The notes under the pieces are model-generated. The model did no database searches. It was not told where the DNA came from and saw only the letters and a program-made list of their open reading frames with translations. DNA of 64,000 nucleotides from Escherichia coli (GTDB lineage: Bacteria; Pseudomonadota; Gammaproteobacteria; Enterobacterales; Enterobacteriaceae). The position numbers were made by a program, and so were the translations under genes. Where the stretch lies: assembly GCF_002854065.1 (NCBI RefSeq), contig NZ_CP024147.1; one strand, 5' to 3'. Position 1 is the first letter of the stretch; the number at the start of each line of letters is the position of its first letter. This document shows, piece by piece, positions 16,645 through 18,267 of the stretch.

Positions 16645-18267
16645 ATGAATACTCTCCCTGAACATTCATGTGACGTGTTGATTATCGGTAGCGGCGCAGC
16701 CGGGCTTTCACTGGCGCTACGCCTGGCTGACCAGCATCAGGTCATCGTTCTAAGTAAAGGCCCGGTAACGGAAGGTTCAACATTTTATGCCCAGGGCGGT
16801 ATTGCCGCCGTGTTTGATGAAACTGACAGCATTGACTCGCATGTGGAAGACACATTGATTGCCGGGGCTGGTATTTGCGATCGCCATGCAGTTGAATTTG
16901 TCGCCAGCAATGCACGATCCTGTGTGCAATGGCTAATCGACCAGGGGGTGTTATTTGATACCCACATTCAACCGAATGGTGAAGAAAGCTACCATCTGAC
17001 CCGTGAAGGTGGCCATAGTCACCGTCGTATTCTTCATGCCGCCGACGCAACTGGTAGAGAAGTAGAAACCACGCTGGTGAGCAAGGCGCTGAACCATCCG
17101 AATATTCGCGTGCTGGAGCGCAGCAACGCGGTTGATCTGATTATTTCTGACAAAATTGGCTTGCCGGGCACGCGACGGGTTGTTGGCGCGTGGGTATGGA
17201 ACCGAAATAAAGAAACTGTGGAAACCTGCCACGCAAAAGCGGTGGTACTGGCAACCGGCGGTGCGTCGAAGGTTTATCAGTACACCACCAATCCGGATAT
17301 TTCTTCTGGCGATGGCATTGCTATGGCGTGGCGCGCAGGCTGCCGGGTTGCCAATCTCGAATTTAATCAGTTCCACCCTACCGCGCTGTATCACCCACAG
17401 GCACGCAATTTCCTGTTAACGGAAGCACTGCGCGGCGAAGGCGCTTATCTCAAGCGCCCGGATGGCACGCGTTTTATGCCCGATTTTGATGTGCGCGGCG
17501 AACTGGCCCCGCGCGATATTGTCGCCCGCGCCATTGACCATGAAATGAAACGCCTCGGCGCAGATTGTATGTTCCTCGACATCAGCCATAAGCCCGCCGA
17601 TTTTATTCGCCAGCATTTCCCGATGATTTATGAAAAATTGCTCGGGCTGGGGATTGATCTCACACAAGAACCGGTACCGATTGTGCCTGCTGCACATTAT
17701 ACCTGCGGTGGTGTAATGGTTGATGATCATGGGCGTACGGACGTCGAGGGTTTGTATGCCATTGGCGAGGTGAGTTATACCGGCTTACACGGCGCTAACC
17801 GCATGGCCTCGAATTCATTGCTGGAGTGTCTGGTCTATGGCTGGTCGGCGGCAGAAGACATCACCAGACGTATGCCTTATGCCCACGGCGTCAGTACGTT
17901 ACCGCCGTGGGATGAAAGCCGCGTTGAGAACCCTGACGAACGGGTAGTAATTCAGCATAACTGGCACGAGCTACGGCTGTTTATGTGGGATTACGTTGGC
18001 ATTGTGCGCACAACGAAGCGCCTGGAACGCGCCCTGCGGCGGATAACCATGCTCCAACAAGAAATAGACGAATATTACGCCCATTTCCGCGTCTCAAATA
18101 ATTTGCTGGAGCTGCGTAATCTGGTACAGGTTGCCGAGTTGATTGTTCGCTGTGCGATGATGCGCAAGGAGAGTCGTGGCCTGCATTTTACGCTGGATTA
18201 CCCGGAACTGCTCACGCATTCCGGCCCATCGATCCTTTCTCCCGGCAATCATTACATAAACAGATAA
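16645..18267 (+). CDS. nadB: L-aspartate oxidase
   Basis: 540-aa ORF with N-terminal FAD-binding [11 protein letters not shown] motif. Confidence 0.97.

Follow-up and report, generated by a model that had tools for sequence, protein, structure and literature searches.

Overlapping 3' ends of convergent protein genes form a well-described class of gene arrangement in Escherichia coli, for which 58 convergent overlaps were counted by Lillo & Krakauer in 2007 (PMC2174442) and 75 convergent overlapping pairs by Huvet & Stumpf in 2014 (PMC4161906). Overlaps of 4 nt reading TTAA, CTAA, TTAG or CTAG are the commonest type, and among the convergent overlaps longer than 4 bp the phase 123:213 is the rarest, with a share of 18–22% (PMC2174442). 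Lillo & Krakauer also pointed out that the rho-independent terminators of such genes necessarily lie within the coding sequence of the partner, and a terminator of this kind was predicted in only 20% of the E. coli genes with convergent overlaps (PMC2174442). At the level of transcripts, ExcludonFinder (NAR 2025, PMC12288877) used strand-specific RNA-seq coverage to define where transcripts end, and the pairs whose transcripts overlapped in ≥50% of 58 MG1655 samples make up its list of 165 convergent excludons. TransTermHP-predicted terminators overlapped the partner gene in 146 of these 165, a figure given here for the whole set and not by pair (PMC12288877).

In the 64-kb stretch of E. coli DNA analysed here (the window), nadB and trmN overlap by 16 nt and mltF and tadA by 4 nt at their convergent ends. 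Both junctions are members of the class described above, already known and ordinary, and nothing about them points to a special mechanism. Like the catalogued pairs (PMC2174442, PMC4161906), they bring together protein genes of opposite strands with common 3' ends. The catalogued class is further characterized by terminators within the partner coding sequence and by an under-representation of rho-independent ones, and the present pairs differ from it in nothing essential. The modal overlap, 4 bp of interlocked stops, is matched by mltF/tadA and by a further pair of the window, yfiM/kgtP, whereas the 16 nt of nadB/trmN exceed the mode of the class and adopt its least frequent phase (123:213).

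The convergent excludons of MG1655 (PMC12288877) include mltF-tadA, nadB-yfiC and yfiM-kgtP by name, and the likeness lies in their being listed by RNA-seq coverage. Classical excludons possess long 3' or 5' UTRs, whereas the ends of the coding sequences themselves overlap in the present pairs. Moreover, the excludon concept denotes mutually exclusive expression, but these pairs qualify through the coverage criterion alone, which overlapping coding sequences satisfy automatically whenever both genes are expressed. Convergent transcripts overlapping at the gene boundary are also a feature of the overlapping bidirectional terminators and RNA polymerase collisions of Ju et al. (2019) and Wang et al. 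(2022). The sites in that work carry an intergenic hairpin common to both strands and give uniform 3' ends, whereas the present junctions lack intergenic DNA and a conserved hairpin, and 3' peaks are not reported for them. The terminator argument of the original prediction was already published in 2007 and both overlaps are annotated in K-12, and the comparative explanation of the frozen 16-nt overlap is the sole new element of this analysis.

Convergent gene ends in the window

The nadB gene (16645–18267, + strand) encodes an L-aspartate oxidase of 540 amino acids and ends with the stop codon TAA at 18265–18267 according to the ORF list, the sequence and RefSeq. The opposing trmN gene, also named yfiC (18252–18989, − strand), encodes the tRNA1Val m6A37 methyltransferase of 245 amino acids, with a TAA stop that is the complement of 18252–18254. 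The 16 nt at 18252–18267 are therefore dual-coding, specifying (H)YINR-stop of NadB on the + strand and (F)YLFM-stop of TrmN on the − strand. The 3' end of nadB reads GGC AAT CAT TAC ATA AAC AGA TAA and that of trmN reads TTT TAT CTG TTT ATG TAA, placing the third position of each NadB codon opposite that of a TrmN codon (phase 123:213). An overlap of 16 nt between these convergent genes was what the original prediction had claimed, and it proved exact to the base, with agreement between sequence and RefSeq and an identical arrangement in K-12 MG1655 (RefSeq nadB 2710420..2712042, yfiC 2712027..2712764).

The second junction is formed by mltF (2024–3580, + strand, 518 amino acids), with the stop TAA at 3578–3580, and tadA (3577–4080, − strand, 167 amino acids), with a TAA stop that is the complement of 3577–3579. 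The two share the stop-on-stop tetramer TTAA at 3577–3580, and the claimed 4-nt overlap was confirmed by sequence and RefSeq, the K-12 MG1655 coordinates (mltF 2695801..2697357, tadA 2697354..2697857) giving the same overlap. At both junctions each stop codon is read inside the coding sequence of the partner, and the RefSeq ends of all four genes in the source strain, E. coli 100416, equal the ends read from the sequence. A third convergent overlap, absent from the original prediction, was found between yfiM (+ strand) and kgtP (− strand) at 30497–30500, as given by RefSeq coordinates and by the sequence, which reads CTAA there. The annotation of the window contains 12 convergent CDS pairs; three of them overlap, and the other nine are separated by gaps of 26–193 nt. 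With TTAA and CTAA, respectively, mltF/tadA and yfiM/kgtP both belong to the 4-nt stop/stop tetramer class.

NadB, TrmN, MltF and TadA all scored above the NCBIfam equivalog cut-offs (4/4), and both pairs are bona fide protein genes on opposite strands. NadB matched NF006567 with 1047 bits, and the PDB chains of E. coli NadB comprise 540 residues and match through the last one. The last ~20 amino acids of NadB are regarded as a tail outside the family core, because the broad model TIGR00551 stops at residue 520. In the same manner, the last ~37 amino acids of MltF are regarded as a variable tail, because NF008112 spans residues 1–481 only. The TrmN model NF047853 covers residues 2–245 and reaches the model end. 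An annotation artefact, with one gene of each pair actually ending earlier, has nothing in its favour and hardly any probability left; it was excluded by the unambiguous stops, the annotation of K-12 and of the strain itself, the 540-residue NadB of the PDB, the TrmN model extending to the last residue and the presence of the intact nadB/trmN junction in 5424 of 5425 genomes.

Transcription past the four stop codons

Considering that the stops lie within each other's last codons, an RNA polymerase that reaches the end of either gene already copies the partner in antisense, and with zero intergenic space any terminator must be located inside the partner's coding sequence. The original prediction had stated that no room is left for terminators between the genes and that each transcript must read into the antisense of the other. 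The former statement holds, there being no intergenic space at either junction, and the latter is forced by the overlapping ends. In line with this, published RNA-seq analysis lists both pairs as having transcripts that overlap in vivo (PMC12288877). The original prediction also saw here a setting for transcriptional interference or antisense RNA effects, but no evidence of either was found for these loci.

A consensus terminator scan around both junctions yielded site counts no higher than those in shuffled sequence. A custom scan for hairpins with U-tracts, covering the 350 nt that follow each of the four stop codons, gave only weak, irregular candidates, all at least 128 nt from the stops and with short or irregular stems and poor U-tracts. 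These weak hairpin and U-rich sites are situated at +128 of the nadB transcript (~18395, + strand), +234 of the trmN transcript (~18018, − strand), +319 of the mltF transcript (~3899, + strand; GCCCTGCCTCAGGGC-TGATTTCT) and +313 of the tadA transcript (~3264, − strand). The U-tract of the nadB site is not conserved, with just 3–4 T in the 8-nt tail in 53 of 72 loci. No bidirectional intrinsic terminator, consisting of a GC-rich hairpin between an A-tract and a U-tract, was found at the nadB/trmN or mltF/tadA boundary, and an Rfam search detected no known RNA family at either overlap.

A perfect 10-bp inverted repeat with a 7-nt loop (GCATTCTCCC / GGGAGAATGC) is present within trmN at 18342–18368, that is, 75–101 nt past the nadB stop. 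It was ruled out as a terminator or pause signal, being a by-product of the AFSP..GEC codons and having no U-tract on the + strand. Across 80 species its pairing decays at wobble positions, with no systematic compensation, and the fold energy of both 3' regions equals that of shuffled sequences (z = 0.0 for the 18342–18368 hairpin region and 0.8 for the other).

RNA that is rich in C and poor in G is the preferred substrate of Rho. Computed in 78-nt windows, the C/G ratio reaches 1.9–2.2 at 60–260 nt past all four stops, against a 95th percentile of 1.73 across the whole window, although this is a feature of low specificity. The stretch in the nadB transcript covers 18368–18525 (+ strand, 101–258 nt past the stop, C/G up to 2.17) and that in the trmN transcript 18094–18191 (− strand, 61–158 nt past the stop, up to 1.92), both being putative Rho loading regions. 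Corresponding stretches occur at 3319–3476 in the tadA transcript (− strand, 101–258 nt past the stop, up to 1.91) and at 3641–3738 in the mltF transcript (+ strand, 61–158 nt past the stop, up to 2.08). Because an excess of C over G is general in antisense-of-coding RNA, such stretches are weak evidence for Rho.

More direct information came from the DirectRNA-seq of Adams et al. (2021) with and without bicyclomycin, in which a Rho termination region antisense to mltF was located at K-12 position 2697064 on the − strand (PMC7815308). Reads upstream and downstream of it numbered 131 and 14 in the absence of bicyclomycin and 134 and 138 in its presence (score 9.64, p 2e-18). The position corresponds to about 3287 of the window, ~290 nt past the tadA stop and just downstream of the C-rich stretch at 3319–3476, at the low resolution inherent in 800-nt comparison windows (PMC7815308). 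The bicyclomycin sensitivity of the tadA-strand end indicates the involvement of Rho, and according to these published data tadA-strand transcription runs ~300 nt into the antisense of mltF and is halted by Rho (PMC7815308). A weaker Rho region was recorded on the + strand, which is the mltF strand, at 2697105 (score 3.2, p 7e-5; PMC7815308). The same study contains no Rho region for nadB or trmN, no curated Term-seq 3' end within ~250–350 nt of either overlap, and zero 3' ends for nadB/trmN in K-12 2711800–2712399 (PMC7815308). These missing Term-seq peaks fit either diffuse ends or low expression.

In comparison with the Rho suppression of antisense and 3' read-through described by Adams et al. 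(PMC7815308), the present junctions are alike in the bicyclomycin-sensitive end of the tadA transcript within antisense mltF and in the C-rich untranslated RNA past all four stops. The direct evidence from that system is strong for one of the four transcripts (tadA) and weaker for the mltF strand, whereas none is reported for nadB and trmN. A Rho step is what we infer for the nadB, trmN and mltF transcripts as well, in the cases of nadB and trmN from base composition only.

Conservation of the two junctions

A TrmN scan with one genome per species gave 80 Enterobacteriaceae loci at 70–97% identity, in 79 of which nadB converges on trmN. The eightieth species, Intestinirhabdus alba (L029), has no nadB; an ORF does end at the corresponding position of its locus, but it is not NadB. 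Among the 79 species, the overlap is 16 nt long in 76, 8 nt in two and 12 nt in one. The 16-nt overlap probably originated in or before the ancestor of the Enterobacteriaceae.

The TrmN C-terminus is FYLFM in 78 of the 79 species and FYIFM in the other one, and NadB ends in [HY][IM][NK][RK] wherever the overlap measures 16 nt (76 loci, among which L068 ends in M). Within the 16 nt, the only variable sites are the third codon positions of TrmN, its stop codon and the leading base of the Leu codon; just outside the overlap, no position in the DNA of the NadB tail is invariant. The NadB stop is complementary to the third base of the TrmN Phe codon and the first two bases of the Tyr codon; read on the opposite strand, the TTY-TAT codons of TrmN give TAA or TAG and so set the stop of NadB. 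Whether the TrmN stop is TAA/TAG or TGA in turn determines Tyr or His at NadB position 537.

The TrmN motif LT..FYLx[FLM], located two residues from the end, is kept in homologues of only 38–55% identity. The similarity of NadB to other NadB proteins, FrdA and SdhA ends near residue 520 of 540, and the last ~20 residues of NadB appear from these comparisons to be an unconstrained passenger tail. The 16-nt overlap would thus be frozen because the C-terminal Phe-Tyr-Leu-x-Met motif of TrmN cannot change. In distant relatives with 50–55% TrmN identity, a 70-nt hairpin-containing spacer or a transporter gene lies between nadB and trmN, or nadB is missing; the 70-nt spacer of one such relative holds the GC hairpin AGGGCGCA..TGCGCCCT.

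The mltF/tadA junction behaves in the opposite way. In five other genera sampled, the 4-nt TTAA overlap was conserved in two, an Enterobacter kobei-type contig and Pseudescherichia vulneris, both with tail sequences unlike that of E. coli. Salmonella enterica has a 50-nt gap with a REP-like sequence inside, Kosakonia sp. H02 a 41-nt gap, and a Citrobacter braakii MAG a 73-nt overlap. The C-terminal tails vary in both proteins, and on this sampling of sequences the overlap is evolutionarily labile. As a separate observation from the literature, the tadA-mltF intergenic region of Pseudomonas serves as a neutral insertion site.

Within the species, a 2.9-kb stretch around the feature matches strain 100416 at 100% identity and most of the 5,425 complete E. 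coli genomes at ~98%. The nadB/trmN junction is intact in 5424 of them, the single exception carrying an IS2 within the nadB tail next to an intact trmN. The mltF/tadA junction is intact in 5332 and split in ~93, one of the split genomes having an IS1 within the mltF tail with tadA intact and another a 25-nt insertion. Shared by most of these genomes, neither overlap is peculiar to one strain. In each of the three cases examined, the insertion struck the gene whose tail is unconstrained (mltF or nadB) and left tadA or trmN intact. The occurrence of insertions at both junctions in natural strains indicates that the overlaps are dispensable in those strains.

Compact junctions and alternative explanations

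Both junctions are probably ordinary compact tail-to-tail arrangements and not a dedicated device, with diffuse, Rho-based transcript ends and interference that is at most minor. In the mechanism proposed here, the departure of the ribosome at the stop codon would leave untranslated antisense-of-coding RNA that exposes C-rich, G-poor stretches 60–260 nt downstream. Rho would then load on the C-rich RNA and cause diffuse termination 100–400 nt inside the partner gene, aided by 3' trimming, and no intrinsic terminator would be needed at either junction. The TTAA of mltF/tadA can be understood as the usual stop-on-stop state, easily gained and lost where both C-terminal tails are variable. These genes are weakly expressed, and whatever antisense or interference effect they exert on each other is probably a small by-product.

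It is unlikely, though worth weighing, that the 3' overlaps were selected as functional convergent excludons, with the transcription of one gene reducing the expression of its partner, either by polymerase interference or by RNase III cutting the sense/antisense duplex; nadB induced under NAD limitation, for example, would damp trmN. Both pairs are part of the published E. coli 'excludome' (PMC12288877), excludon pairs are more syntenic than other neighbours according to the literature, and the family-wide retention of the nadB/trmN overlap (76/79 species) would also be expected under a selected regulatory coupling. However, this retention is fully explained by the protein constraint on TrmN, as reflected in the TrmN codon periodicity and the free NadB tail, and the mltF/tadA junction is not conserved. 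No functional link is known between the partners, IS insertions divide both junctions in natural strains, and the ExcludonFinder listing follows automatically from coding sequences that overlap and are expressed; validation of double-stranded RNA with p19, for its part, is not feasible for convergent pairs generally. For nadB/trmN in particular, a selected cis-coupling of NAD synthesis to the m6A37 modification of tRNA1Val is very doubtful. In that case, NAD limitation would derepress nadB, whose transcription would extend across the trmN 3' end and result in less TrmN, with Rho limiting the antisense reach.

Termination by defined signals is no more than a slim prospect in either of its forms. 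Collision-driven bidirectional termination, in which converging polymerases pause at a hairpin near the boundary and stop each other, was proposed on the basis of SEnd-seq and single-molecule experiments with convergent E. coli pairs (bioRxiv 10.1101/2022.10.23.513370), and the perfect 10-bp hairpin past the nadB stop as well as the GC hairpin in the 70-nt spacer of one relative would suit it. Yet the former hairpin lies inside trmN, 90 nt before the stop, where translating ribosomes would unfold the trmN-strand copy, and it is a coding by-product with no compensatory maintenance. In addition, the model suits highly expressed pairs best, no Term-seq peaks are found at these loci, and the tadA end responds to bicyclomycin, which points to Rho. 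Intrinsic terminators embedded at defined sites in the partner coding sequence are equally improbable. The weak sites at +128, +234, +319 and +313 of the nadB, trmN, mltF and tadA transcripts, the 146 of 165 ExcludonFinder pairs (PMC12288877) and the 20% of convergent-overlap genes (PMC2174442) speak in their favour, but the counts are not above those of shuffles, the stems and U-tracts are poor, the U-tract at nadB +128 is not conserved, and no Term-seq peaks are reported there.

Taken as ordinary compact junctions, the two pairs are of small importance in view of the K-12 annotation, the terminator argument of 2007 and the genome-wide list of 2025 that names both. What they illustrate is two regimes of convergent overlap, namely that of nadB/trmN, frozen across a bacterial family by the protein constraint of one partner, and the opposite, labile regime of mltF/tadA. 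The conservation of an overlap should not by itself be taken as evidence of regulation.

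A third convergent overlap and neighbouring features

Besides the nadB/trmN and mltF/tadA overlaps listed in the original prediction, the window contains a third convergent pair that was missing from that list, in which yfiM (30177-30500, plus strand) and kgtP (30497-31795, minus strand) share the 4 nt CTAA at 30497-30500. This pair is also included in the ExcludonFinder table of convergent MG1655 genes with overlapping transcripts (PMC12288877). Rfam matches above the gathering score comprised ohsC, the antitoxin sRNA of shoB (6744-6820, plus strand), the rncO leader (10233-10447, minus strand), and AsrC, the antisense RNA of rseC (13231-14062, plus strand). 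A DUF2799 gene is interrupted by IS1B at about 47333-48475 (1243365-1244507 of record NZ_CM128593.1), and P2-like phage genes (late control D and ogr) adjoin ssrA at the 3' end of the window, at about 62000-64000. Within trmN, a perfect 10-bp inverted repeat, GCATTCTCCC/GGGAGAATGC, occupies 18342-18368; other genera keep it only in part, and it seems to arise merely from the AFSP..GEC coding sequence.

The two junctions in relatives

A relative whose TrmN shows 50% identity (locus L092) has a 70-nt spacer between trmN and nadB (3257-3326) with an 8-bp GC hairpin, AGGGCGCA...TGCGCCCT, and this arrangement may represent the ancestral spacer or terminator state. At L029 of Intestinirhabdus alba and at another compared locus, L093, trmN lies without an adjoining nadB and the rpoE operon is found there instead; in the former, an unrelated mechanical ORF of 132 aa nevertheless ends at the same antisense stop, which the TrmN Phe-Tyr codons set. 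A record titled Chryseobacterium sp. 18061 (L039) carries a trmN/nadB locus typical of Enterobacteriaceae, with TrmN 82% identical to that of E. coli, and the assembly is probably mislabelled or contaminated. REP-like sequences lie in or beside the tadA/mltF junction in Salmonella enterica (L086, 3053-3102; GCCGGATAAGGCG...) and a Citrobacter braakii MAG (L090, about 3020-3050; CTTATCAGGCCTAC), suggesting that the junction is remodelled by REP insertion.

Disrupted junctions within E. coli

The mltF/tadA junction is split in about 93 of 5,425 E. coli genomes. In strain NMBU-W12E19 (L095), mltF is frameshifted by a 25-nt insertion. The 3' tail of mltF carries IS1 in O15_8X (L096), and the nadB tail carries IS2 in strain BH212 (L097). 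The partner gene, tadA or trmN, was undamaged in these three examples. Natural E. coli variants disrupt both the mltF/tadA and the nadB/trmN junctions.
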